DNA of 63,432 nucleotides, filler included. It is 5 parts of 5 records of this genome, joined end to end, with 100 filler letters (N's around TTAATTAATTAA, not from the genome) between each part and the next. Parts side by side here need not be neighbours in the genome. Positions count along the whole stretch, not along the records: positions 52,798 to 59,698 come from SRR20825010_23; 4 more parts are not named here. One strand, written 5' to 3'. The notes beneath the pieces are model-generated. The model saw nothing but the letters and a program-made list of their open reading frames with translations. It was not told the origin of the DNA and ran no database searches. This document shows positions 4,733 through 63,098 of this stretch, one piece after another. The translations under genes were made by a program, and so were the position numbers. Numbering within the stretch: the first letter of the stretch is position 1; every line of letters starts with the position of its first letter.

Positions 4733-5548
4733 ATGAAGGTCAAGGAAATTCCTGTTTCACTTTTTTATCAGGCCAATCTAACCAGGCAATCCAAAGAAAG
4801 GCTGATTTCTCATAAAAAATGCGTTCCGGTTATTGTTTCGCTGGCATCGATTCCATCCAGGCTGAACATAGTGCACCTTACAATTCGAAGTTTATTGAAT
4901 CAAGATGTGCTGCCCGAAAAAATTTTGCTGTGGCTGCATGAAGACCTAAAAAATAAAGTTCCAAAAAAACTTACCGACCTAGTTGGAAATATCTTCAGTA
5001 TAGAGTTTACCGATTACTACAGTTCACATAGAAAATTGGTGGAGCCTTTAAAACTATACCCTGAAAAAATTATTGCTACTTGTGATGATGATATGATGTA
5101 TCGCCAAAAATGGCTGTCAAACCTTTATGAAGCCCATCAAGAGAACCCTGATAAAATCATCGCAAACCAAACCCGCTGCATAACCTACAATGAATCTGGA
5201 GAGCTACTACCTTACAAACAATGGAATTCCAATCTAGCAGAATGCAAAAACAAAAAACTTATTCTGCCCATCGGTGCGGGAGGCACTCTCTATCCCCCAA
5301 ACACCATGGATACACAAGTTTTTGACAGGGGGTTATTTTTAAGGCTTGCCCCCAATGCGGACGATCTATGGTTCAAAATAATGGGGCTGTTAAAAGGAAC
5401 ACAATCCATACAAGCCCATAACAGTGAAAAAGAGCCCATACCCATTTTGGGGTCACAAAAAGTCTCATTAAAAAAAGGAAATATTGGTATGGATAAAAAC
5501 AGAGTACAATGGCAGGCTTTGACCGACCATTTTCAACTAAAATTCTAA
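4733..5548 (+). CDS. putative GT-A fold glycosyltransferase
   Basis: VIVSLASIPSR, TCDDD, GTLYPP, DDLW motifs; lies in a glycosyltransferase cluster. Confidence 0.65.
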   Translation: MKVKEIPVSLFYQANLTRQSKERLISHKKCVPVIVSLASIPSRLNIVHLTIRSLLNQDVLPEKILLWLHEDLKNKVPKKLTDLVGNIFSIEFTDYYSSHRKLVEPLKLYPEKIIATCDDDMMYRQKWLSNLYEAHQENPDKIIANQTRCITYNESGELLPYKQWNSNLAECKNKKLILPIGAGGTLYPPNTMDTQVFDRGLFLRLAPNADDLWFKIMGLLKGTQSIQAHNSEKEPIPILGSQKVSLKKGNIGMDKNRVQWQALTDHFQLKF

Positions 5549-5552
5549 AACA

Positions 5553-6113
5553 TTGATCGAAGAAATCAACAACTGCAATAAAGTGCTGCAAGAAGGCGGG
5601 CTCATCCTCTACCCTACCGATACCGTCTGGGGCATAGGCTGCGATGCCACTAATCCCGAAGCCGTAAAAAAAGTGTACGCTCTTAAAAAGCGCGAAGACA
5701 CCAAAGCACTTATCTGCTTAGTGGCCAACCAGGCCATGTTGGAGCGCCATGTAAAAGAAGTGCCCGAAGTCGCTTACGATATCATGGACCTGGCAACCAA
5801 ACCTACCACCATTGTATTTGATGAACCCATTGGGATAGCGGAAAATCTGGTCGCAGAAGACAATACACTGGCGATTCGTGTGGCTTCCGATAAATTCTGC
5901 CAGTACCTCATCAATAAATTCAGGAAACCCATTGTTTCCACATCCGCCAACATTTCGGGCAATCCCACCCCAAAACAATTCAAGGATATCGATGAAGAAA
6001 TTTTAAAAGGAGTGGACTATGTGGTAAATTTGCCGGATGAAAATATAAACCCTTCCCCCTCCTCTATCATTAAATTGAGCAACGACGGACAGGTGAAGGT
6101 TATTCGGGAATAA
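5553..6113 (+). CDS. L-threonylcarbamoyladenylate synthase (Sua5/YrdC/TsaC family)
   Basis: YPTDTVWGIGCD and STSANISG motifs. Confidence 0.92.
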   Translation: MIEEINNCNKVLQEGGLILYPTDTVWGIGCDATNPEAVKKVYALKKREDTKALICLVANQAMLERHVKEVPEVAYDIMDLATKPTTIVFDEPIGIAENLVAEDNTLAIRVASDKFCQYLINKFRKPIVSTSANISGNPTPKQFKDIDEEILKGVDYVVNLPDENINPSPSSIIKLSNDGQVKVIRE

Positions 6114-6115
6114 CA

Positions 6116-7546
6116 ATGGCGAAGGAATTCCATACAGCGGCAATACAACATCCTATTTTTAAACTTATCGGCGAAGCTTCAGACGAACTGGGCGTGGACT
6201 CCTACGTTATCGGTGGTTTTGTTCGCGATTATTTCTTAAAAAGAAATACGCCAAAAGATATTGATGTGGTCGCTGTTGGAAGCGGAATAGCACTTGCCAA
6301 AAAAGTAGCCTCGAAACTTAAGGGCAAACCAGAAATATCCGTATTCAAGAATTTTGGAACCGCGATGATCAAGCATAAAGATTTAGAGCTTGAGTTTGTA
6401 GGTGCCAGAAAAGAAAGCTACAATCGAGATAGCCGAAAACCCATTGTGGAAGATGGCACTTTGGAAGACGACCAAAACCGCCGCGATTTCACCATAAACG
6501 CGATGGCCCTGGCCCTTAACCAATCCAATTTTGGAGAACTTTTAGACCCGTTTGATGGTTTAGCGGACTTGGATAGGCAAATCATTCGAACCCCTTTGGA
6601 GCCGGGCATTACCTATTCCGACGACCCGCTACGGATGATGCGTGCCATTCGGTTTGCAACACAACTGCATTTTACCATTGAGCTACAATCGCTTCAGGCC
6701 ATTACCGAGAACAAAGACCGTATCAAAATTGTTTCCAAGGAACGTATCGTGGACGAACTCAACAAAATATTGATGAGTTCCAAACCGTCCATAGGATTTT
6801 CGTTGATGCACAAAACTGAGCTTCTACCTTTAATATTGCCAGAGCTTACCGCTTTACAAGGTATAGAAGAGATAGAAGGTCAACGTCATAAAGATAATTT
6901 TTGGCACACCTTGGAGGTCGTGGACAATATTTCCGAAACCACGGACAACCTCTGGTTGCGATGGGCGGCATTGCTTCACGATATCGGCAAGGCACCCACC
7001 AAAAAATTCCATAAAAAAATCGGTTGGACCTTCCATGCCCATGAATTTGTAGGGGCAAAAATGGTGTACAAACTCTTCAAGAGGTTGCGGTTGCCTTTGA
7101 ACGAGAAAATGAAATTCGTTCAAAAAATGGTATTGATGAGTTCAAGACCCATTATTTTGTCCGAAGATCACGTCACGGATTCCGCGGTTCGGCGGTTGGT
7201 TTTTGATGCCGGAGATTTTGTGGAAGACCTTATGACACTTTGTGAGGCGGACATCACAACAAAAAATCCTCGCAAACAAGAAAAATACAAGAACAATTTT
7301 AAGATTGTACGCCAAAAAATAGTGGAAGTAGAAGAGCGTGACCACGTTCGGAACTTTCAGCCCCCTGTTTCCGGTGAGGAGATCATGAAGACCTTCAACT
7401 TGAAACCTTCCAAGGAAATCGGCATCATCAAAGATGCCATCAAAGAAGCGATTTTGGAAGGCGAAATTCCGAACGAATATGAGGCCGCCTACCAGTTTAT
7501 GTTGGAAAAAGGCAAAAAATTGAACCTAAAAGTCCACTCCGAATGA
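6116..7546 (+). CDS. cca: CCA tRNA nucleotidyltransferase with HD domain
   Basis: GGFVRD, DIDV, RRDFTINA, DDPLRMMR, LLHDIGK motifs. Confidence 0.92.
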   Translation: MAKEFHTAAIQHPIFKLIGEASDELGVDSYVIGGFVRDYFLKRNTPKDIDVVAVGSGIALAKKVASKLKGKPEISVFKNFGTAMIKHKDLELEFVGARKESYNRDSRKPIVEDGTLEDDQNRRDFTINAMALALNQSNFGELLDPFDGLADLDRQIIRTPLEPGITYSDDPLRMMRAIRFATQLHFTIELQSLQAITENKDRIKIVSKERIVDELNKILMSSKPSIGFSLMHKTELLPLILPELTALQGIEEIEGQRHKDNFWHTLEVVDNISETTDNLWLRWAALLHDIGKAPTKKFHKKIGWTFHAHEFVGAKMVYKLFKRLRLPLNEKMKFVQKMVLMSSRPIILSEDHVTDSAVRRLVFDAGDFVEDLMTLCEADITTKNPRKQEKYKNNFKIVRQKIVEVEERDHVRNFQPPVSGEEIMKTFNLKPSKEIGIIKDAIKEAILEGEIPNEYEAAYQFMLEKGKKLNLKVHSE

Positions 7547-13449: not shown

Positions 13450-13549
13450 NNNNNNNNNNNNNNNNNNNNNNNNNNNNNNNNNNNNNNNNNNNNTTAATTA
13501 ATTAANNNNNNNNNNNNNNNNNNNNNNNNNNNNNNNNNNNNNNNNNNNN
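13450..13549. other. artificial contig linker
   Basis: 44 N + TTAATTAATTAA (stops in all six frames) + 44 N; composition changes across it. Confidence 0.98.
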
Positions 13550-52797: not shown

Positions 52798-53094
52798 GTT
52801 ATAAAACAGAAATTCCTCTCCTCCACAATTACTAACTATTCCATTTACTGGATCGTCAATATTATAAATAGAAGTTGCGTCGCTTATAAATAAAAACAAG
52901 TCATTTTCTCTATAAATATTGTATCCTATAATTTCATCGTGAGGTTGTTCTGGCTCATCCCAACTGAGAATAAAAAAATTGTTTGGATTTTCATACCTAT
53001 GTTCCCAATTTAAGTTTTGAACTGGATTAATTTGTCCGATTAATTGAAAAGTAAAAGCCAATGAAATTGCAACTGTCAGTGTAACTGTTTTCAT
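52798..53094 (-). CDS. secreted protein with FnIII-like N-terminus, truncated (cassette gene)
   Basis: Signal peptide MKTVTL..IGQ; PVQNL...LSWDEP...GYNIYR; real start ATG 53094. Confidence 0.65.
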
Positions 53095-53118
53095 AATGTC
53101 TTTTTTTTGTATGTTGTT

Positions 53119-53251
53119 GTGTACCGATTGAGCTATGGTTTCGTTGCGAAAAATGTCTACAAATTTCTTTCCGCCATAGCATAAAGATAGCAAAACGGTG
53201 AGAATTTTAAGCAGAAAATTATGCCGCAATGAAGTATTGCCGTTGTTGGCA
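53119..53251. repeat. attC-like imperfect palindrome A
   Basis: Ends GTGTACC...GTTGGCA; arms GCTATGGTTTCGTTGCG / CGCAATGAAGTATTGC. Confidence 0.65.
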
Positions 53252-53258
53252 TACGTTT

Positions 53259-53657
53259 TTATTTATTTATAACATACGTTTTAGAAATTGAATCGTGCCA
53301 ACCTTTTTCTGATATTAGAAAAGAGAGGGCGTCAAATGGAATCAATCTGCAGAGATTGCGAATAAGTAAAGTCTTGAAATCTGGTTTATTCCCATTATAG
53401 TCAATAACCTTAGTTCCAGTTATAAACTTTCCTGGTGTTTTGCCAAAAGCATATTCAAAAAGCAAATGATACAAAACGTATAGAACAAAAAAATATAATA
53501 CGAACCAATTAGAGCCCCTTTCAGGCATTATTCCAAGCCAACCATCAAGAACCATTGCGTTTAAAAAAATAAGAAAGTAGAATCCTATAGTATCTATAAG
53601 ATTATTTCCAAATCGAGTTCCTTTACTTGCGTAATCAATTATTAATTCATTATTCAT
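53259..53657 (-). CDS. RDD family protein (cassette gene)
   Basis: TRFGNNLID, GKTPGK..TGTKV, RNLCR.IPF, WHD. Confidence 0.88.
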   Translation of the reverse strand: MNNELIIDYASKGTRFGNNLIDTIGFYFLIFLNAMVLDGWLGIMPERGSNWFVLYFFVLYVLYHLLFEYAFGKTPGKFITGTKVIDYNGNKPDFKTLLIRNLCRLIPFDALSFLISEKGWHDSISKTYVINK

Positions 53658-53676
53658 TCCTAGTATTTTTAATGTT

Positions 53677-53813
53677 TGCCAAGGTAGGTTTGTGTATGAT
53701 TAGTGGCGTGTTTTAAGCTCCTAATTTAATAAATAAAAACTGAATAGAATTTTGAAGTGTTGGGGTTAATATGTAGGCTATTACTAGCAATTAATTGATT
53801 TTGAATATTGGGT
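53677..53813. repeat. attC-like element B (same family as the left part of D)
   Basis: Starts TGCCAAG; shares CCTAATTTAATAAATAAAAACTGAATAGAA and TATGTAGGCTA..ACTAGCAATTAATT with 58404-58541. Confidence 0.75.
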
Positions 53814-54364
53814 TATTGATATAAAACATATCTTGGTGGTTTTAGTCCATTCAGTCGCAAATAAACCAGCATTTGTCCTCTGTGGTGGGTTATGTGGTCG
53901 GTAAGCAACAACAAAATCTGTGTTTTTGTTCTGTCTGCTCCAAAATAGTCCAATCTTTCTTTAAGTCTATTTGGGTCAAAATTTCCGATGAACTCTATTG
54001 TTTTGTCAAAAGTCTCATTGATTTTAGCAATCATTTCTTTTTTCGATTTGGTGTCAACTTTGAGCTCCGTGTCGGTATTCCAATCTCTCGCTTCACGTCC
54101 GCCTATTAATGATTGACTGTGCCAATCCATTGCCCAACCAATATGCATTAAATTTTCCGCAAAGCTCATTGATTCAGGCGTTGGTTTATATTCATACTTA
54201 TCTTCTGGCATTGTATTCGCTACAAGAATTAAATATTCTTTCGATTTTTCTAATCGTTCCAAATACTCTTTGATGAAGTCATTTTCTTGTGCAATAATCG
54301 GCTGTGTAACTGAGAACAAAAGCATTACCGAAGTCAGAATTAAAAGGTATTTTATGTTTTTCAT
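53813..54364 (-). CDS. DinB family protein with signal peptide (cassette gene)
   Basis: MPEDKY.YKP...SFAE.L.H and DHITHHRGQ...YLR. Confidence 0.88.
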   Translation of the reverse strand: MKNIKYLLILTSVMLLFSVTQPIIAQENDFIKEYLERLEKSKEYLILVANTMPEDKYEYKPTPESMSFAENLMHIGWAMDWHSQSLIGGREARDWNTDTELKVDTKSKKEMIAKINETFDKTIEFIGNFDPNRLKERLDYFGADRTKTQILLLLTDHITHHRGQMLVYLRLNGLKPPRYVLYQ

Positions 54365-54406
54365 TTGTTTCAATTTATTATTTCCGATGGGTTTGGTTAT
54401 AATGAA

Positions 54407-54540
54407 TGGCAACTTATTTGTATTTGATTAGTTGCGTTGGTAGGAACTAAGTTATTAAAAGAAAACGAACCTCTGGAAAATTCAGCAGGAATTTTCCAGA
54501 GGAACAAAGCCACAGCAATGGTTTATACAGAGTGTGGGCA
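54407..54540. repeat. attC-like element C
   Basis: TGGCAAC...GTGGGCA ends; TGTAT/ATACA and TTGC/GCAA arms; perfect 14-bp inner stem CCTCTGGAAAATTC/GAATTTTCCAGAGG at 54470-54502. Confidence 0.75.
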
Positions 54541-54547
54541 GTAGTTT

Positions 54548-55867
54548 TTATTTTTCAGTTAATTCTATTGCTTTTTCTAAAACTACATCTTTGTCTGATA
54601 AAAAATCGTCAATTGATTGCTCAATTTCAATATCTGGCTCAATAGTAGCTTTTGGGTTTTTTTCTTGAACATCTGTAATAAATATGTTTCGAGCCACAGT
54701 ATAAGTAAATTTTGTGTTTGTAAGTTCGAACTGTTTTTGATTTGCAGTACAGAATTGATTTGAGCCTAAGGTTTCTCCAACAAAAACTACTCTCTTTTTA
54801 TCTTTGTATATAGATGCTAAATGACCAACGGTAGAATACCCATCTCCATTCATTACAAAAATAATTTTCCCTTTAAAATTATTTTCAAAAGGTTGCTGCA
54901 TCTCTTTTCTTCCATAATCACTAGTTGCAAAGTAATGAAAAGGGTCTTGTAGCGTATATTTTAAGAGATTGATTGACGCTTCACCTGGTCCTCCCAAATT
55001 TTGGCGAACGTCTATTATTAAGTTTTTATAGTCTTTGGTTTTAATTTCTTTAAAAGAATCATTTAGGAAGTTTAAAAAAACCTTTGTTTTATCGCCATAA
55101 TATGCGAAGTTCCGTAGGGTCAATAAAGCTGTTTCAGCATTAATTTCTGTTAAACAAAAATCATTTTGACACGGGTGCTTATTGCTAAAGAGTGGCGCAT
55201 AGGGTGGATTTTCATTTAGAGGTTTTAAATTAATTGTTCCACTTTTACCTGCAATTGTTACATTGTAAACATCGGGAAAATTTAAGGCGTACGAAATTAT
55301 AGAGGTATTATACCCATTAAAAAGTTTTCTTTTTGAACTTTCAATATTTGCTTGAGTATTGATATGTGAATAAATAACAGCCATCATTTCACTAATAGAT
55401 TTACCATTAATGTGGGTTATTTCTTGACCGATTTGCACATTATCTTTATTAGTTAAATTATCTATAACATAAAGTTTATTATTGATAAGTCTTGTGAGAA
55501 GCGGAAAGTAGTCTTTTGGTTTTAGTAAATCTCTTTGTTGATTAAAAAACCCTAATGAAGTATGGCCGCAACTAACTATTGCAATAATCTCGCTCAACTT
55601 CCAAATAAAATCTTTTTTGGTAGTTGTATTATCAATTTCACTTCTTAACTGTTTAGCTTTTTTATCGAAATCAGCTTTTGACGTGAATTCATAGAGCGCA
55701 GGATGATATGTAGACAAGGTATCTATTAGTTCATTATAATCTGCTACATAATTTTGAGCTTGTTTATTTAATGGTTCTCTTTTGTTTTGGTCAGAATTTT
55801 TTTGATCATTCTTACACGATAGGATAGCTAGCCCTATAATTAGAAAAGCTATTGTTTTATTAATCAT
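54548..55867 (-). CDS. S41 family peptidase-like lipoprotein
   Basis: Lipobox ILSC; HP.LY, CGHT, LIIDVRQNLGG, VGETLG, IEPD. Confidence 0.8.
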   Translation of the reverse strand: MINKTIAFLIIGLAILSCKNDQKNSDQNKREPLNKQAQNYVADYNELIDTLSTYHPALYEFTSKADFDKKAKQLRSEIDNTTTKKDFIWKLSEIIAIVSCGHTSLGFFNQQRDLLKPKDYFPLLTRLINNKLYVIDNLTNKDNVQIGQEITHINGKSISEMMAVIYSHINTQANIESSKRKLFNGYNTSIISYALNFPDVYNVTIAGKSGTINLKPLNENPPYAPLFSNKHPCQNDFCLTEINAETALLTLRNFAYYGDKTKVFLNFLNDSFKEIKTKDYKNLIIDVRQNLGGPGEASINLLKYTLQDPFHYFATSDYGRKEMQQPFENNFKGKIIFVMNGDGYSTVGHLASIYKDKKRVVFVGETLGSNQFCTANQKQFELTNTKFTYTVARNIFITDVQEKNPKATIEPDIEIEQSIDDFLSDKDVVLEKAIELTEK

Positions 55868-55950
55868 ACTTTTTATTAATTAGTATCTAGTTATTCTGTA
55901 CTATGATTTTTTTAGTTAGAGTTACTATTATGTTTTTAAAGACAGAAACT

Positions 55951-57048
55951 TCAATTGTTATCTGTTGTAACAAAAACATTTAATAATTGCCAAAAAGCAT
56001 TATTGCTTACACCACCCGGTTTTAGTCCCCAATTAACTAATGTTGGCACTTTATATTTATGGGCTACTACAATATTAAGTTTTGGAATAACGGTTATGAA
56101 TTGACCTCCCCATCCATGTGCAGTATAAGCTCCTTCAAAATCAGGGTGTTGCTTGAAATTATCTGCTAACCACCACATATAGCCATAAGAAAATTGAAAT
56201 GGACTTGATTCGTTTAGTCCATATCGTTTATTTACAATTTCAGTTGGTGTTACTGTAGTTGTAATTTTATCAATCCAGTTTTTAGATATTATTTGTTTCC
56301 CATTCCACTCCCCTTTATTAAGCATAAGTTGTCCAATTTTAGCCATATCTCTAGTTGATAAATACATATGGTGGGCAGGGTATCTCGATTTACTTTTGTT
56401 GTATTTTTCTTTTTGATTTTTAATATTCCAGTCTTGAAACCCTAAGGGGATTGCAAGCTGTTCTTCAATTTCTTGATACACAGTTTTTCCAGATTTCATT
56501 TCGAGAATAGCACCAGCCACATTAAAGTCCCAATTATTATAAACAAAATACGATCCTGGTTTAACACTACCTCTTTCTAAAATGTTATTTTCGTCATACC
56601 CTCCATTTGCAGGTTCATAAAACACTCCAGAACGAGATGTAATTATATTGTTAACAGTTGCGGTTTTCTCTATTTCTAATAATCCTCTATCTTCATCAAT
56701 ACCAATTTCGCCTATTTTTTGATTTAAGTTTATAACTCCATTTTCAACATATTTTCCGTACAAGATGCTTAAAACACTTTTACGGCAGGAAGCTATATAC
56801 CCTATTTCGGTATTATCTCCATATTCATAAAGAATTTTGCCGTCTTTTAATATCAACATTCCTGTTGTTTCAAGATTATTTTTTAAATAATTTGTTAAGG
56901 AGTCTAATCTTTGTTGGGTAAATCCTGTATTAGCTAAGGTTTCATGTTTTTCAAAAGAAACACCTTCAAATTGAGGTTTATGAGAACCGCAACTCAAGAA
57001 TATGGTCATGCTTAGAATAATAATTACGATTTGTTGTTTTTTTACCAT
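55951..57048 (-). CDS. serine hydrolase, beta-lactamase/PBP-like lipoprotein
   Basis: Lipobox FLSC; SxxK (SCRK), YNN, RDMAKIG, G.GGQ. Confidence 0.88.
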   Translation of the reverse strand: MVKKQQIVIIILSMTIFLSCGSHKPQFEGVSFEKHETLANTGFTQQRLDSLTNYLKNNLETTGMLILKDGKILYEYGDNTEIGYIASCRKSVLSILYGKYVENGVINLNQKIGEIGIDEDRGLLEIEKTATVNNIITSRSGVFYEPANGGYDENNILERGSVKPGSYFVYNNWDFNVAGAILEMKSGKTVYQEIEEQLAIPLGFQDWNIKNQKEKYNKSKSRYPAHHMYLSTRDMAKIGQLMLNKGEWNGKQIISKNWIDKITTTVTPTEIVNKRYGLNESSPFQFSYGYMWWLADNFKQHPDFEGAYTAHGWGGQFITVIPKLNIVVAHKYKVPTLVNWGLKPGGVSNNAFWQLLNVFVTTDNN

Positions 57049-57199
57049 TTTATTGATTTTAAAAATTTAATGATGCGGATGTAAAACTCAACCAATAATT
57101 TTTTATTAATAATTTTTATTTACTGAATTGTATATTATTGATGATGAATTGTATTAATAATACTACATATGTATTTCTGTCAGTACTAATTTTTTAAGC

Positions 57200-57586
57200 C
57201 TATTCATTCTCAATAAGTATTTTTTTAGTATCTACCCATTTCAAAGCTGTGATAATAATAATTAGAAGTGCAATGACTTCAATGCTTGCACAAATTATAT
57301 AATGAGGCATTAAGCTTCCACCTCCAATAACATATATAATAGTTAAAACACTGGCGAGAATATTAAGAATACGATTTAATCGAAAAGATAATGATTTAGA
57401 AAAATAAATCATAAGTATCGGTATATTGGTTATAGCTGCGGCAATGGCCATTGTTGTAATAACTTCTCCAAAAATATTGAGTGTATTTCTATTTACAAGT
57501 TCTATTATAATTGATAGAATATCGGCAAATATTATATTAAGTATTACCACAATCCATAAGGTGGATAATTTGGTTCGTGTATCCAT
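57200..57586 (-). CDS. membrane protein (DUF6326-like)
   Basis: KLSTLWI..ILN..FADI, NR.LNI pattern; about 4 TM segments. Confidence 0.7.
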   Translation of the reverse strand: MDTRTKLSTLWIVVILNIIFADILSIIIELVNRNTLNIFGEVITTMAIAAAITNIPILMIYFSKSLSFRLNRILNILASVLTIIYVIGGGSLMPHYIICASIEVIALLIIIITALKWVDTKKILIENE

Positions 57587-57735
57587 TAGCTACATTTTGA
57601 TATTTTATTTTGCTTTAAAGCATTAAAGGTTTCAGGACTGTAGCCCCCTATTTTAGAGAGTTTATTAAAATTTAATGCGCTTGATAATAACAAAGCAATA
57701 CAGTTTTGCATCTACTACGTTTTAGAATTATAATG

Positions 57736-57780
57736 CAAAATTAAATTTATTTAATAGCAGAAAACGTTCACTTAAGTTAA
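57736..57780 (-). promoter_or_regulatory. Bacteroidota -7 box with upstream palindromic Crp/Fnr-type site
   Basis: TAATTTTG at 57743-57736; TTAACTTAAGTGAA near-palindrome at 57780-57767. Confidence 0.55.
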
Positions 57781-57790
57781 GAAAGGGATA

Positions 57791-58372
57791 TTAGCTTTTT
57801 ATATTTTTTAGAATTCTCGATTTTATCCTACTTAAGGATTGAGGTTTAATACCTATTAAGCTTGCTAGTTGATGTTGTGGAACACGCTGAACAAGGTCTG
57901 GTCTGTTTTGTAATAAACTTAAATAGCGTTGTTCTGGTGAAGTTGTTTTAAACTCGTCTAAGTCTATTTTTTGTTTCATTAAATGTTCTTCTGAAATTAT
58001 GCGACATAAAGATTCAAATTTTGGAAATTTCTGGAACATCTCGTTTTCCATCTCAGGATTAGAAACGGTTACTATAGAATCTTCAATACAATCTAAGTAA
58101 TATTCAGAGGCTTTTTTGTTTAGAACACAATTTGGTGTTATGCCTTCCATTTCTGTATAAAAAGCAGTAGTTTTTTCTTCTCCATCAATAATATAGTAGG
58201 TTCTAATACACCCTTTTAAAACAAAATACCCATTATTAGAGTGCTCGCCTTCTTTTAGTAAAACAGTATTTTTTTTTACAGTGCGAAAAATATCTAGTGA
58301 AGTTAAAACCTCTTTTTCTTTTTCAGAAAGTGAAATGTATTTTGAGATAAATTCAAATAGTAAGTTCTGCAT
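57791..58372 (-). CDS. Crp/Fnr family transcriptional regulator
   Basis: LLKEG, FVLKGCIR, EQRY, LASLIGIKPQSLSRI HTH. Confidence 0.92.
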   Translation of the reverse strand: MQNLLFEFISKYISLSEKEKEVLTSLDIFRTVKKNTVLLKEGEHSNNGYFVLKGCIRTYYIIDGEEKTTAFYTEMEGITPNCVLNKKASEYYLDCIEDSIVTVSNPEMENEMFQKFPKFESLCRIISEEHLMKQKIDLDEFKTTSPEQRYLSLLQNRPDLVQRVPQHQLASLIGIKPQSLSRIKSRILKNIKS

Positions 58373-58403
58373 ATTTTAATTTGGTTTCATTTCGTGAAAT
58401 TAC

Positions 58404-58613
58404 TGACAAGGGTTTTGTATGAGGTTGGTGGCGTGTTTCAGCACCTAATTTAATAAATAAAAACTGAATAGAACTTTGAGGTTTTGGGAGCGAGCCCCGA
58501 AGTGTTGGGGTTGGTATGTAGGCTATAACTAGCAATTAATTTTATGTTTTGTCCTGAAATATGGCTACAGGTTAAAATTGATTTTACGCTATTATTTTAA
58601 TACATTGTTGGCA
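58404..58613. repeat. attC-like element D (apparently composite)
   Basis: TGACAAG ... GTTGGCA; left about 140 nt homologous to B; right end CTATTATTTTAATACATTGTTGGCA complements the left end of E. Confidence 0.75.
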
Positions 58614-58619
58614 ATAGTA

Positions 58620-59549
58620 CTATTTTATTTTAAGTGAGGTCTTATATATTTTACTTAAGCCATTATTACTTTCATTAATATATTTTTTAAATTCTGAAAT
58701 AGAATCGAAATTTCTTGGATGTATATTATTTCTTTTGCTTGTAAAATATAAAATTTGGTTTTGCTCATCATAAAATGGGCAATATTCCATATACTTTGTG
58801 TTCACCGGAATTCCTAGATTTACAGCTTTTTCCCAGTTTCCTTTTGTATCCTTCTTCGAAATATATAAATCTCCACTTCCTTGACCATCTTTTTCATTAT
58901 ATTTTGAATAGATTATGAAATCTTCATTTTCTGAAATAAAAGCATTAAACTCATAGCCGGTACTGTTAATGTTTTTATCTAATAAAATAGGGTTTGAATA
59001 TTTATCACCTTTCCATTCACAATAATAAATATCATCATTTCCAAAACCGTCAGGCGATACCATTGTAAAATATATATTTCCATTTTTACTAACAGAAGGA
59101 TAAAACTCGTCTAATTCTGAATTAATTGGTTTTCCAATGTTTTTAGGTTTTGACCACACCTCATTTTTGTTACCTCTTTCAACAAACCAAATATCAAAAT
59201 CCTTTTTTTTATTAATAGAATCATTTAAAGGTCTATTAGAGACAAAAAATAGTCGATTATTATCAAATGATAAAAAAGGCTCTAAATACATATATGAATC
59301 ACAAAAAGGTAATAATTCTGGTTTTGACCATCCATTTTTTTTCTTTTTAATATAAGCAAGTTGTGAAATTTCTTGATTAGGGCTTTGTACAGTAAAGAAT
59401 GCTTCATTCCCATCTTTTGAAATACAAAAATCTCTTACATTAATAAATTGATTTAGTGCTTTATCAAATTGAGTAATATCAGATTCATTCTGAGCTGATA
59501 ATAAATTTGAAATAAGAATTAACGAAATTACTAATCTGATTTTTTTCAT
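58620..59549 (-). CDS. secreted PD40/TolB-like beta-propeller protein (cassette gene)
   Basis: Signal peptide; repeated FFVSNRP, INS..DEFYP, G.G..D.YIS, NLG.PVNT. Confidence 0.85.
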   Translation of the reverse strand: MKKIRLVISLILISNLLSAQNESDITQFDKALNQFINVRDFCISKDGNEAFFTVQSPNQEISQLAYIKKKKNGWSKPELLPFCDSYMYLEPFLSFDNNRLFFVSNRPLNDSINKKKDFDIWFVERGNKNEVWSKPKNIGKPINSELDEFYPSVSKNGNIYFTMVSPDGFGNDDIYYCEWKGDKYSNPILLDKNINSTGYEFNAFISENEDFIIYSKYNEKDGQGSGDLYISKKDTKGNWEKAVNLGIPVNTKYMEYCPFYDEQNQILYFTSKRNNIHPRNFDSISEFKKYINESNNGLSKIYKTSLKIK

Positions 59550-59575
59550 TATTGAAGTTCTTTTAAAAGTATTAT

Positions 59576-59698
59576 TGCCAACGTTTAGTATAAAAGAAGT
59601 AGGGCTGTAAATAAGCAATTACCTTTCGGATTATCTACAAGCCAGATTTTTAAATTTTACTATTTATCTTTTTTATTGGAAATCGTCAAATTTAAAAA
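59576..59698. repeat. attC-like element E, truncated by contig end
   Basis: Begins TGCCAACGTTTAGTATAAAAGAAGTAG; contig breaks inside it. Confidence 0.7.
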
Positions 59699-60487: not shown

Positions 60488-61366
60488 ATGATATTAAAAG
60501 AAAGGCTTGCGAGTATGTACACTTTAAAGACATGGGGGCTTATCGAGTCAGGAATACCTGCACTAGACGATAATAGCACATTTGAGCAAGGAAAAACAAC
60601 ATTGTTAGCTGCACGCCCAGGAATGTTTGCCAAACGTTTGATAGGTCAGTTAATTTTAAGGGTGTGTATACAAAACAAAAATCCCTTAGCCCATTTTAGT
60701 TTTGAAAGATCTGTCAAGGAAACCATTGACCATTATCTTTGGTGCTTGACCTTGGACACTAGGTTTCTGTCATCAGATTCATGCTCTGAAGAACTTGTAA
60801 ATTCAGAGGCAATTGATTATGCCTTCAAATTGTTTGAACAGTCTCCATATTGGATAGAGACCCGAAGGGAATACTCCTATATTGAAAGTTTGATAGACCT
60901 CCTTAGAAAAAGGGTGGAAAATCATAAAATAAGATTGGTCGTGCTAGACTACCTAGAGCTTTGTGGTTCAATTGAGCTTTCAAAGAATAAGTCAATGCCC
61001 ATTGAGAAAAAGAGAAGTGTTGAGCTAAAAAAACTAAAAGCCATTGCCCGTGAGCTTGATGTTCACATTATTATAACAAGTGTATTAAGCAATTATGTTG
61101 ATTTAAGGCCGTATCACGAAAAGCGACCTGAAATTGATGATATCAACATTGAAAAGCCATTTGATTGTGTTGATAATATTATACTTGTCTATCGTCCCGA
61201 ATTTTATGGCATCAAACAATGGGATATTTTTGGTAATAAAAAAGAAAGACTGTCTACTCGTAATTGCTTAGAAATATCTCTACATCAAAAGGAATCTTTC
61301 TCTGGAAAATGTTTATTGGAATTTAATAACCCATGTACCGAGTTTAGAGATATTACACCTTTTTAA
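60488..61366 (+). CDS. DnaB-like helicase C-terminal domain protein with degenerate Walker A
   Basis: SGIPALD, LAARPGMFAK, FSFE, VVLDYLEL, LKAIARELDV, KRP, YRPEFY. Confidence 0.75.
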   Translation: MILKERLASMYTLKTWGLIESGIPALDDNSTFEQGKTTLLAARPGMFAKRLIGQLILRVCIQNKNPLAHFSFERSVKETIDHYLWCLTLDTRFLSSDSCSEELVNSEAIDYAFKLFEQSPYWIETRREYSYIESLIDLLRKRVENHKIRLVVLDYLELCGSIELSKNKSMPIEKKRSVELKKLKAIARELDVHIIITSVLSNYVDLRPYHEKRPEIDDINIEKPFDCVDNIILVYRPEFYGIKQWDIFGNKKERLSTRNCLEISLHQKESFSGKCLLEFNNPCTEFRDITPF

Positions 61367-61372
61367 AGTACT

Positions 61373-62110
61373 CTATGCAATCAATTCTAGAAGTGCGTTA
61401 ATATGTAGTTCCTCCTTTTTCCCCATAGGATGCTCGGTGACAATTATATTCAAATTATCTACAAAGTACTGTTTAGTTTCATATTTGGACCACGGAATAA
61501 CCTTATCTGGCTCGGGCAGGTTGTTTTGTTTATCCAAGCCCATTAGGTTTTTCAGAAAAAAACCCTCCCAACCACCGGTATACATGATTACGGTCTCAGG
61601 TTTGAAAATTTCCAGTTCCTTACGGAATATACTTATGCAATCCTCCCTTTGTAAGTTCCGCAATTTGGGATTTGGATTCATTCCAGTGTTATTCGGTGAT
61701 ACTTTGAAAAGATTGCTCCAAACAACATGCGAAAACCAATCGTCATTTATTTTTGGGAGATGAGCCTCTGTTGTTTTTTTAACAACTCTCCAAAAAGCTG
61801 AACGCTTGGTATTATATTTATTTTTATCATGCTCTCGCTCATGTACCCAGCGCATTTGATTCCCTCGATTGAAAATTCTATCGTTTCCCTCACCAAAAAG
61901 TACATCGGCATCCAGAGAGTTGTTTATCCAGCCATTTACCGATCGTCCGACAAACATAATACGTTGCTTGGGTTCTAAATCAAAATAGTGTTCGCCCCAT
62001 TGGGCACAGAAAACACAGCTGTCATTGGCAAAATTGGATTCATTGACCTTTTGGAGCATTGGGACATACAATTGTTTCAGCTTTGCTTTGTGATTTTTCA
62101 AATCAATCAT
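61373..62110 (-). CDS. uracil-DNA glycosylase-like fold protein
   Basis: IMFVGR, SAFW, WSNLFK, ELEIFKPE, C-terminal EHP. Confidence 0.6.
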   Translation of the reverse strand: MIDLKNHKAKLKQLYVPMLQKVNESNFANDSCVFCAQWGEHYFDLEPKQRIMFVGRSVNGWINNSLDADVLFGEGNDRIFNRGNQMRWVHEREHDKNKYNTKRSAFWRVVKKTTEAHLPKINDDWFSHVVWSNLFKVSPNNTGMNPNPKLRNLQREDCISIFRKELEIFKPETVIMYTGGWEGFFLKNLMGLDKQNNLPEPDKVIPWSKYETKQYFVDNLNIIVTEHPMGKKEELHINALLELIA

Positions 62111-63098
62111 AATCTTTAGTAAGGTTTTTTGTCAGTTTAATGGTTTGGTTCAAAATAGCTTTTTTTAGTGAAGGAGGTTCGACAGATATTAAACTGCCAC
62201 CATAGGAAACCAACTTCATGATAAAATTATGTTTGGGAACAAGTAAAAACCCAAAGGACGTTGAGTCCTTGGTCTTACTGATAATGGTTTGACTATGGTG
62301 TAACGGTACTGCTTCCAAGAAGCTGGCCTGAAATTTTGATAGCGTAATTATTATTTCCACAGGTTCCTCATGAAGACTTGGTTCAACACCATAGGAATGT
62401 TTAAAATAGTCTTGAATGTCATATTTATCTTCAGGATAAGTTTCTTTTAGCAGTTCAATGTGATTTATTCGGTCCAAGCTGAAAATCCTAAAGGATTTTT
62501 TTTCTATATCATGCCCGAAGATATACCAGCGTTGATCATGCTCCTTAATGCCGTAAGGGTTTAGTTTCCTTTTCTGAGGTTTTTCTATATAATTTTTATA
62601 ATGAACAAATGAGAGACCTTTTTTTGTTTCAATTGCCTCCAAAACAAGAGAAAGATATTTTGAGGATGCCTTATTCTTTTCTTGTGGAATGATATAATCA
62701 GGAAGAGTGTCCGAGGCGCTCAATGCCATTATCACATCAAGGTGGCCCAATATGTATTGTGTGGGCTTTCTAGCATCCGATTCATCGACAATATTATACT
62801 TTAACGTTGATTTGTCATATTCAATGGATATTTGATAAATTGAATCAATATTCTTTATGTCCCGCTGAAACGTCCTTAATGAGAACCGAAGGTCCCTGTC
62901 TAATAATATTGATTGTGAATCCAAGTAATCAGCTATTTCATCAAACGTTCTAGGTCTTGTTCGCAGACACTGTACTATTTTTTGTTGCCGTATAGTAATT
63001 TCTTCAAACCTCACGTGTTCTCTTGAATTAGTTAAATTTTTCTCGTGGTAGAGAAATTCATTTAATGAATTGCTCCATTTTTCAAATATAGACTCCAT
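62103..63098 (-). CDS. HTH-WYL-WCX transcriptional regulator
   Basis: RTFQRDI HTH; PYGIKE...RWYI, RIFSLDRI; PLHHSQ. Confidence 0.9.
   Translation of the reverse strand: MESIFEKWSNSLNEFLYHEKNLTNSREHVRFEEITIRQQKIVQCLRTRPRTFDEIADYLDSQSILLDRDLRFSLRTFQRDIKNIDSIYQISIEYDKSTLKYNIVDESDARKPTQYILGHLDVIMALSASDTLPDYIIPQEKNKASSKYLSLVLEAIETKKGLSFVHYKNYIEKPQKRKLNPYGIKEHDQRWYIFGHDIEKKSFRIFSLDRINHIELLKETYPEDKYDIQDYFKHSYGVEPSLHEEPVEIIITLSKFQASFLEAVPLHHSQTIISKTKDSTSFGFLLVPKHNFIMKLVSYGGSLISVEPPSLKKAILNQTIKLTKNLTKDYD

Follow-up and report, generated by a model that had tools for sequence, protein, structure and literature searches.

The 6.9-kb stretch at positions 52798-59698 of the window (the whole stretch of DNA that was analysed, 63,432 nucleotides) is one whole separate contig of ~30% GC, on which minus-strand genes alternate with related spacers. 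The contig is probably a fragment of a sedentary integron-like cassette array of a Flavobacteriaceae bacterium, run by a dedicated recombinase that is not an IntI (probability about 0.78). A first-pass annotation, made from the sequence alone, had proposed a system that captures and shuffles cassettes, with attC-like sites of a non-canonical type and a tyrosine recombinase encoded elsewhere. The capture system is supported by covariation of the cores, a hairpin common to the sites, cassettes recurring in other genomes and long arrays. The recombinase is supported as well: relatives carry a dedicated enzyme at the heads of their arrays, and it is not an IntI.

In intact relatives, a cassette comprises a single gene or a few genes, mostly promoterless, and after them a site of ~132 nt. 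In the proposed mechanism, the recombinase would cut at or beside an invariant GTT, and cassettes would be excised as circles carrying one complete site. Re-insertion could take place at a simple ATATAAC-N2-3-GTT site just after the recombinase gene, or at other sites. Catalysis, the exact point of crossover and the use of a folded bottom strand are steps that we infer from sequence comparison, in which G|TT is not distinguishable from CG|TT and similar positions as the crossover point.

Site family and cassette boundaries

Intergenic regions of Lacinutrix and Oceanihabitans loci follow a common plan: stop codon, xxxxAAC, 3 nt, GTATATAA..TTGC, ~85 nt, GCAAC....ATAYACAAAC(A)C, GTTxxxx, 15-40 nt and ATG. 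The xxxx parts agree between the start and the end of a gene unit and not within a spacer. The layout of the site is thus R''(xxxxAAC) - 3 nt - L''(GTRTAT...TTGC) - variable centre - L'(GCAA...ATAYAC) - ~6 nt - R'(GTTxxxx). Alignment A2 comprises 23 sites of 128-135 nt from five genera, and covariance model R1 was trained on 23 sites from five genera other than that of the window; the window spacers A-D described below are absent from the training set.

Model R1 produces 87 matches at E<=1 in 479 kb (the window plus the loci of relatives). Matches at E<1e-4 lie on one strand within each locus, which is the strand of the cassettes, with the exception of L032, where there is one each way. The median length of a site is 132 nt (125-138 nt in 72/81); the median distance from a same-strand stop codon to its start is 9 nt, and that from its end to the following ATG is 32 nt. 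Sites of the attC type were taken to have an R'' core ending in AAC, an R' core beginning with GTT, paired L boxes and an unpaired spacer within 57-141 nt. The family displays GTT in 64 and AAC in 67 of 81 sites, together with paired L boxes and an unpaired spacer. Three array loci scanned with Rfam at gathering thresholds gave 0 matches.

A structure drawn by hand, with the R box and a three-segment L helix, pairs 86.5% of cells, compared with 24-41% when the partner is slid. In the L helix alone (13 pairs), 94% of cells are paired and double compensatory changes occur in 6/13 pairs. The covariation score is 0.272 versus 0.116 +/- 0.015 for shuffles, a value reached by 0/500 of them. Since the spacers of the window gave no fold support, intact sites of relatives were used for folding. 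Their bottom strand folds with paired ends and an asymmetric bulge beside the R box in 6/6 cases (z -1.8 to -3.7), the unpaired region being 3 nt on one side and 6 nt on the other. The bottom strand is more stable than the top one in the same 6/6 sites and in 9/9 sites of a second set.

The boundaries of the mobile unit are marked by the four variable bases of the cores. Between the R' of one site and the R'' of the next, that is, at the two ends of the same cassette, these bases are complementary at 3.06/4 positions on average and perfectly so in 33/63 consecutive-site pairs. Within one site the mean is 1.41/4 (perfect in 3/81), which is close to that of random core pairs (1.44/4, perfect in 84/2000); perfect complementarity per cassette and per site differ at Fisher p = 7e-12. 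The array of Oceanihabitans is the clearest example, with 16/17 cassettes perfectly complementary and 11 different cores. Such a pattern is expected if cassettes recombine as circles at the GTT of one site, and core matching per cassette is the classic boundary rule of integrons. Judged by sequence, both ends of a cassette carry R-box halves that come from one site, as in integrons.

Arrays and the recombinase at their heads

The first-pass annotation expected tandem arrays in Flavobacteriaceae, and the R1 scan did reveal clustered, co-oriented arrays of up to 77 kb and 89 sites. In the complete genome G095, 89/93 sites form one plus-strand array at 534,013-610,843 (77 kb). Spacers scattered without relation to gene ends, which had been named as evidence against a cassette system, are therefore mostly not what is seen. 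The limit is set by G146, where a minus-strand array of 40 kb holds 27/55 sites, and the remaining 28 occur outside it, dispersed as single sites or small groups. The cargo of one array includes TfoX_N, a CdiI_3 immunity protein, an OLD-like ATPase-TOPRIM nuclease and a RES-domain protein.

In a sample of 151 family genomes, with no more than 22 candidates per genome being scored, sites matching R1 are present in 134; in a sample of 151 genomes of the phylum they are present in 35; the 17 site-free family genomes are mostly of 1.4-2.6 Mb. The recombinase (E<=1e-80) is present in 105/151 family genomes. Site and recombinase occur together in 102 of the 151, the site only in 32, the recombinase only in 3 and neither in 14 (p = 4e-6, uncorrected for phylogeny).

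The recombinase gene heads the array and shares its strand in G002, G003, G095, G146, G054, G098, G121 and G143 (twice in the latter). Comparison of coordinates adds 15 arrays in 14 genomes with a co-oriented recombinase at the head, so that the total is at least 24 arrays. All heads inspected by eye (9/9) have an L'-like box and a GTT core 25-140 nt after the recombinase stop codon, sometimes preceded by a short perfect hairpin. In many drafts the contig ends 100-500 nt after this stop codon, as expected if repeats begin there; the repeats of the arrays likewise explain the fragmentation of Flavobacteriaceae drafts into many small contigs.

The protein has 375-405 aa and consists of Phage_int_SAM_4 and Phage_integrase domains with an N-terminal extension of ~105 aa; a search of Pfam and the ESM Atlas with the N-terminal 105-110 aa produced no match. 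It passes the cut-off of NF040815, 'XerA/integron integrase' (235 vs 220 bits), and its closest solved structures are XerA (4a8e, E 1.8e-45; 5hxy), followed by VchIntIA. In the alignment to VchIntIA (2a3v), 19 aa span 60 aa of IntI; the ~41 aa that are missing correspond to the IntI-specific insert, which is absent. The match to TIGR02249 is accordingly split (7-178 and 240-314) and reaches 204 bits, against a cut-off of 265. A true IntI, above the TIGR02249 cut-off, was found in 0/5 array-bearing genomes. According to an extract of a tyrosine-recombinase classification, the insert is incompletely conserved within the integron-like subgroup. The protein family comprises thousands of clusters, which bear the names 'XerD', 'recombinase' or 'site-specific tyrosine recombinase/integron integrase'; many of them come from contigs only 1-3 kb long.

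Several other observations concern recombinases of these arrays. One or more in-frame stops are present in 14 array-type recombinase matches among the matches listed (e.g., G054:C1:2616762-2617883 and G143:C1:1296801-1297922), so a fraction of the arrays may be orphaned. A 304-aa Xer-like recombinase is present eight times on contig G143:C1; the scores of the copies are near-identical, and several of them lie inside the two cassette arrays (for example, 2152945-2153733, 2166603-2167388, 1274943-1275731 and 1286204-1286989). This protein may represent a small recombinase-borne mobile element living in arrays. In Lacinutrix, a 405-aa integrase, a 661-aa protein and a small HTH protein (L029:15595-19299; G005:C7, about 105.6-109.3 kb) adjoin the first site of a 38-kb array on the opposite strand. 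The 405-aa integrase was considered as the array recombinase and rejected, its architecture (Arm-DNA-bind_5 + SAM_5) being of the CTnDOT type. Together with the HTH and 661-aa genes, this architecture indicates that the integrase probably belongs to a neighbouring integrative element, which may have targeted or split the array.

Cassettes and sites of the contig

The window consists of five contigs joined by linkers (N...TTAATTAATTAA...N) at 13494, 28742, 52742 and 59743, and the contigs flanking 52798-59698 have a GC content of 36% and 55-60%. Because of the linkers and the differing GC of the neighbours, nothing outside 52798-59698 is physically linked to the array, and the neighbouring sequence of the window is irrelevant to it. 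ORF calling agrees with the annotated eight co-oriented minus-strand genes, and the Pfam domains found on their ORFs are RDD, DinB, S41, beta-lactamase-fold hydrolase, DUF6326, cNMP/Crp and PD40. A recombinase gene is not among the genes of the contig. GTTGGCA occurs 5 times in the 6.9 kb of the contig and 14 times in the remaining 56.5 kb of the window.

The PD40 cassette (58607-59582, minus strand) reads GTTGGCAATAATA ... TACTATTGCCAAC from core to core and is the sole unit on the contig with both cores intact. Its ORF (58620-59549, 309 aa) encodes PD40/WD40-like repeats. The four-gene unit at 54548-58372 (minus) comprises genes for a Crp-like protein (57791-58372), DUF6326 (57200-57586), a beta-lactamase-fold serine hydrolase (55951-57048) and an S41 peptidase (54548-55867); model R1 detects no site between the four genes, and the cores at the ends of the unit are mutated (CTT..., ...CAC). 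The DinB cassette (53813-54413, minus) has its ORF at 53813-54364 and a GTTGCCA core at its 5' boundary (54413-54407), its own 3' core being deleted. The RDD cassette (53245-53676, minus; ORF 53259-53657) has the ends CTTGGCAAACATT ... AACGTATGCCAAC. One more ORF runs off the contig end, so that only its 5' part is present (52798-53094, minus). It had been taken for an FnIII protein, which is not confirmed: the 99 aa seen have no Pfam match at E<=0.01. The reported 13-nt matches between the two ends of a unit (PD40 12/13, RDD 10/13, Crp unit 9/13) are reproduced by reading of the sequence. An inverse core after the stop codon had been described for every complete unit; the DinB unit lacks it. 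Relatives of the DinB cassette carry TGGCAAC ~50 nt after the stop codon, and in the window a ~40-nt deletion has removed R'' and L''.

Spacers A-D are genuine members of the repeat family: R1 matches all four at the annotated positions on the minus strand, with E values from 6.5e-10 to 1.6e-6, and the remaining 56.5 kb of the window give no match at E<=1. Site C (54407-54540) is the best preserved in the window (47.4 bits, E 6.5e-10); its R'' is TGCCCAC, with CAC for AAC, and its R' GTTGCCA. Spacer B (53677-53813) is a truncated site: the match at 53698-53796 (46.7 bits) covers only model positions 17-113, and R' reads CTTGGCA. Site A (53119-53251; 34.2 bits, E 8.9e-7) retains an intact R'' (TGCCAAC), its L boxes and R' being degenerate (GGT for GTT). 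Spacer D (58404-58613) had been described as a single spacer of 210 nt; a site is present there, and the spacer is a composite of part of one site and a second, degenerate one. Its part at 58555-58613 (59 nt) is the 5' portion (R''-L'') of the PD40 cassette's own site. The degenerate site at 58404-58554 is of full length (33.1 bits); its R pairs are broken and its R' is CTTGTCA. Spacers B and D have ~110 nt in common at 91-93% identity.

Spacer E (59576-59698, minus) is the 3' part of a long-form site (~198 nt) cut by the contig end, with an L'-like box followed by R' GTTGGCA at 59582-59576. A hairpin insert of high copy number makes up its first 62-93 nt and is homologous to L004:2282-2374 (86%), inside a 198-nt R1 match at L004:2207-2404. 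The insert (window 59637-59698, up to ~59606) has 19-nt inverted arms and lies in the loop of long-form sites. It matches dozens of Flavobacteriaceae genomes at 85-95%, often at contig ends, and its depth in public runs is 20-60x that of the contig. It could be mobile, as a small insert, or serve some sites as a functional module.

The description of the spacers as imperfect palindromes is not borne out by folding of single-stranded DNA. Spacers A, B, D and E fold like shuffles (z -1.1, +1.0, -0.4 and -1.0), and the z of -4.5 for spacer C is due only to an internal 14-bp terminator-like hairpin followed by T's. A short perfect hairpin with a T-rich stretch after it, on the coding strand, was observed at 54470-54505 of the window and in the centres of many sites in L004, L014 and L031. 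This central hairpin resembles an intrinsic terminator and could insulate cassettes from each other. The window's own sites are largely relics, and the contig is a partly decayed piece of an array. A scan of the contig with Rfam gave 0 matches at E<=1.

Cassettes of the contig recur individually in other genomes. When 401 family genomes were searched with the contig by BLAST, 132 had matches, each cassette being matched on its own: PD40 (contig positions 97-1112) at 96% and 93%; DinB (5286-5913) at 95% in G324, 88% in G302 and 86% in G144; RDD at 86% in G334, over positions 6021-6444 only. The hydrolase, Crp and DUF6326 genes match other genomes separately at 70-76%. Relatives of the PD40 protein are 92-95% identical in Oceanihabitans, Winogradskyella, Mesoflavibacter and Lacinutrix, and the DNA is 92-96% identical in these four genera only from contig positions ~97-121 to 1091-1112. 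The similarity covers the gene, the two cores and at most ~20 nt on each side, beyond which the flanks are unrelated. The array recombinases of the same four genera are only 36-45% identical in protein sequence. For DinB, the similarity in three relatives begins at or just before GTTGCCA. R1 sites flank the DinB relatives on both sides in L044 and L045, and only a downstream site is detected for L042.

Duplication within an array is observed in Mesoflavibacter, where a 430-nt cassette with its downstream site is present three times (X-X-Y-X) at 94-99% identity, the divergence starting just 5' of CGTT. The same genome has a solo PD40 cassette, with a complete site on its downstream side and, upstream, just a half-site that bears GTT. 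The Oceanihabitans copy of PD40 (L001:7960-8960, L018) lies outside any detected site, and both its cores are changed in a matching manner (5' ...CTAGCA, 3' TGCTAAT); from its sequence, it looks like a decayed cassette of the GTTAGCA/TGCTAAC type.

The origin of the material deserves mention. The GC content along the five contigs of the window is about 40%, 55%, 60%, 30% and 36%, which indicates that the 'genome' is a mixed or contaminated assembly, or a bin; genome G001, which is related to a different contig of the chimeric window, gives no match to the array contig. The next contig (36% GC) encodes a DnaB_C-like protein (60488-61366, plus strand) and a WYL-domain protein (62103-63098, minus strand) and contains zero R1 matches. 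The stretch 52798-59698 is present in four public runs (X19-X22) from two studies, labelled as four different organisms, so the bacterium is a recurring associate or contaminant. In three of these runs, all of one study, a single contig of ~9 kb spans nearly all of the stretch with 0-1 differences. The public contigs extend ~2.2 kb beyond the 52798 end, and no joints were seen in them; being assembled contigs only, they are silent on excision.

Alternative readings and known systems

A number of facts weigh against the interpretation of the contig as a fragment of an integron-like array run by a non-IntI recombinase. No recombination junction has been observed directly. The sites of alignment A2 were picked with motif patterns, so that their invariant positions arise partly by construction. 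The sites of the window score 33-47 bits, compared with about 95-134 bits for intact sites; three of them have mutated GTT or AAC triplets, B is truncated, and folding is missing, so the fragment itself may be immobile. The recombinase gene is absent from the contig, a 34-kb array in G100 has no recombinase remnant at either end, and the main Lacinutrix array abuts the CTnDOT-type integrase instead. The arrangement is divergent in G004, with 6 kb in between, and apparently so in G118 (~10 kb, judged from coordinates only), and half of the sites of G146 lie outside its main array. The recombinase lacks the insert which IntI needs for folded attC, and recognition of the hairpin by this protein is again something we infer. 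Finally, the downstream site of PD40 is common to Winogradskyella and Mesoflavibacter and differs in Lacinutrix and in the window beyond ~30 nt, and the three DinB relatives also differ in the downstream site. Homologous cassettes with differing downstream sites are not predicted by a simple integron model.

The last two points are shared by the reading that survives best among the alternatives, though it is unlikely. In it, platform and recombinase are the same and the sites act as duplex DNA: R''-L'' and L'-R' would be two inverted core sites of the Xer type, as in Xer/dif modules, and no folded strand would be needed. An enzyme closest to XerA (4a8e, E 1.8e-45), without the insert that reads extrahelical bases, fits this reading, as do box sequences conserved in themselves, beyond what pairing demands, and downstream sites not always inherited with the cassette. 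Duplex sites do not, however, account for the six pairs of the L helix with double compensatory changes, for pairing that reaches well past the boxes or for the consistently greater stability of the bottom strand. Moreover, sites in the arrays stand in direct repeat. In Acinetobacter plasmids, by comparison, pdif sites are 28-bp duplex sites of alternating orientation served by host XerC/D. The likeness to pdif modules lies in discrete gene modules bounded by sites for Xer-family recombinases; unlike them, the arrays have structured 132-nt repeats in direct orientation and a dedicated recombinase. Chromosome-dimer resolution by Xer/dif, in which housekeeping XerC/D of ~300 aa act on one 28-bp dif site, does not match the arrays either: separate Xer paralogues of ~300 aa exist in the same genomes, and the array protein of 375-405 aa is found beside tens of 132-nt sites.

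It is highly improbable that the spacers are REP-, MITE- or terminator-like repeats spreading alone between genes that are not mobile units. This would agree with the central hairpin and T-rich stretch of many sites, with the 28/55 sites of G146 found outside the main array and with the 62-93-nt hairpin insert, which behaves as a small mobile repeat. It is largely refuted by core halves that are complementary per gene unit and not per repeat, by similarity between genera that covers gene and cores and then stops, and by the concentration of the G095 sites in one co-oriented array beside a recombinase gene. REP and MITE repeats would be dispersed and unrelated to the ends of gene units, and the clustering in G095 and the per-cassette cores are the opposite of this. 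An extract of a MITE survey (PMC11602168) mentions Flavobacteriales, and the array sites may have been catalogued there as MITEs.

A canonical integron or CALIN, with ordinary attC sites served by a true IntI elsewhere in the genome, has an equally slight chance: the AAC/GTT cores, L boxes, attC-range length, co-oriented cassettes and the NCBI name of the neighbouring recombinase ('site-specific tyrosine recombinase/integron integrase') are offset by the lack of any protein above the TIGR02249 cut-off in the five array genomes, by the array-linked recombinase without the defining insert and, according to an extract of the IntegronFinder 2.0 preprint, by Bacteroidetes being nearly without integrons.

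Integrons are defined by an IntI with a special domain and are seen as the sole dedicated system of cassette capture. The Vibrio superintegron has VCR-type attC sites of roughly 120-130 nt. Integrons are held to be very rare in Bacteroidota. The integron-like arrays described here resemble such sedentary chromosomal integrons in their long series of co-oriented, mostly promoterless small genes (up to 77 kb), in the length of the sites and their likeness within a genome, in the AAC...GTT cores and the paired L region, in core complementarity per cassette and duplication of cassettes within arrays, and in a cargo of immunity, toxin-antitoxin-like and defence-like genes (here CdiI_3, RES and OLD-like). 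They differ in a recombinase without the IntI insert and with an extra N-terminal domain of ~105 aa, which is usually co-oriented and immediately upstream of the cassettes, in the consensus of the site and in homologous cassettes without a constant site. Integrons typically have attI and a cassette promoter beside a divergent intI; the recombinase gene is co-oriented here in at least 24 arrays.

In Treponema-type integrons, intI is on the strand of the cassettes and encodes a true IntI with the insert. The common direction of recombinase gene and cassettes is thus shared with them, in contrast to the lacking insert; the recombinase gene here ends 25-140 nt before the first GTT core. The contig and the G100 array resemble CALIN elements as clusters of sites without a nearby recombinase. 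CALIN are, however, defined by the attC model of IntegronFinder; the sites here are defined by model R1, and most arrays have a recombinase. Archaeal integrons, according to an extract of a preprint (Ghaly et al. 2022), were found with the standard IntI and attC tools. They likewise represent arrays in an unexpected clade, and the recombinase here is also near XerA; unlike them, these arrays are apparently not found by standard tools. In the part of the IntegronFinder 2.0 preprint that was available (22,301 chromosomes), Bacteroidetes yielded, apart from earlier In0 elements, only one complete integron (Salinibacter ruber), and a review, also available in part, counts Bacteroidota among the phyla with integrons. 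No description of arrays like the present ones was found in openly accessible full-text literature, a scope which leaves aside subscription journals and supplementary files.

A broader proposal can be put forward with less confidence than the reading of the contig. On balance, it seems that most Flavobacteriaceae carry an unrecognised class of sedentary integrons, with up to ~90 cassettes, 132-nt hairpin sites, cross-genus exchange and a co-oriented XerA/IntI-like recombinase that lacks the IntI domain, which is regarded as essential, and has a new N-terminal domain instead. Such platforms would have arisen or persisted outside the IntI lineage and would have been missed by standard tools. If this is true, cassette capture is possible without the IntI insert, and mechanistic studies gain a simple, testable recombinase-site pair from the arrays. 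A major component would then have escaped surveys of the marine mobilome and of how integrons are distributed, and a large, ecologically important marine family would share a big pool of mobile cassettes, including immunity, toxin-antitoxin-like and defence-like genes.

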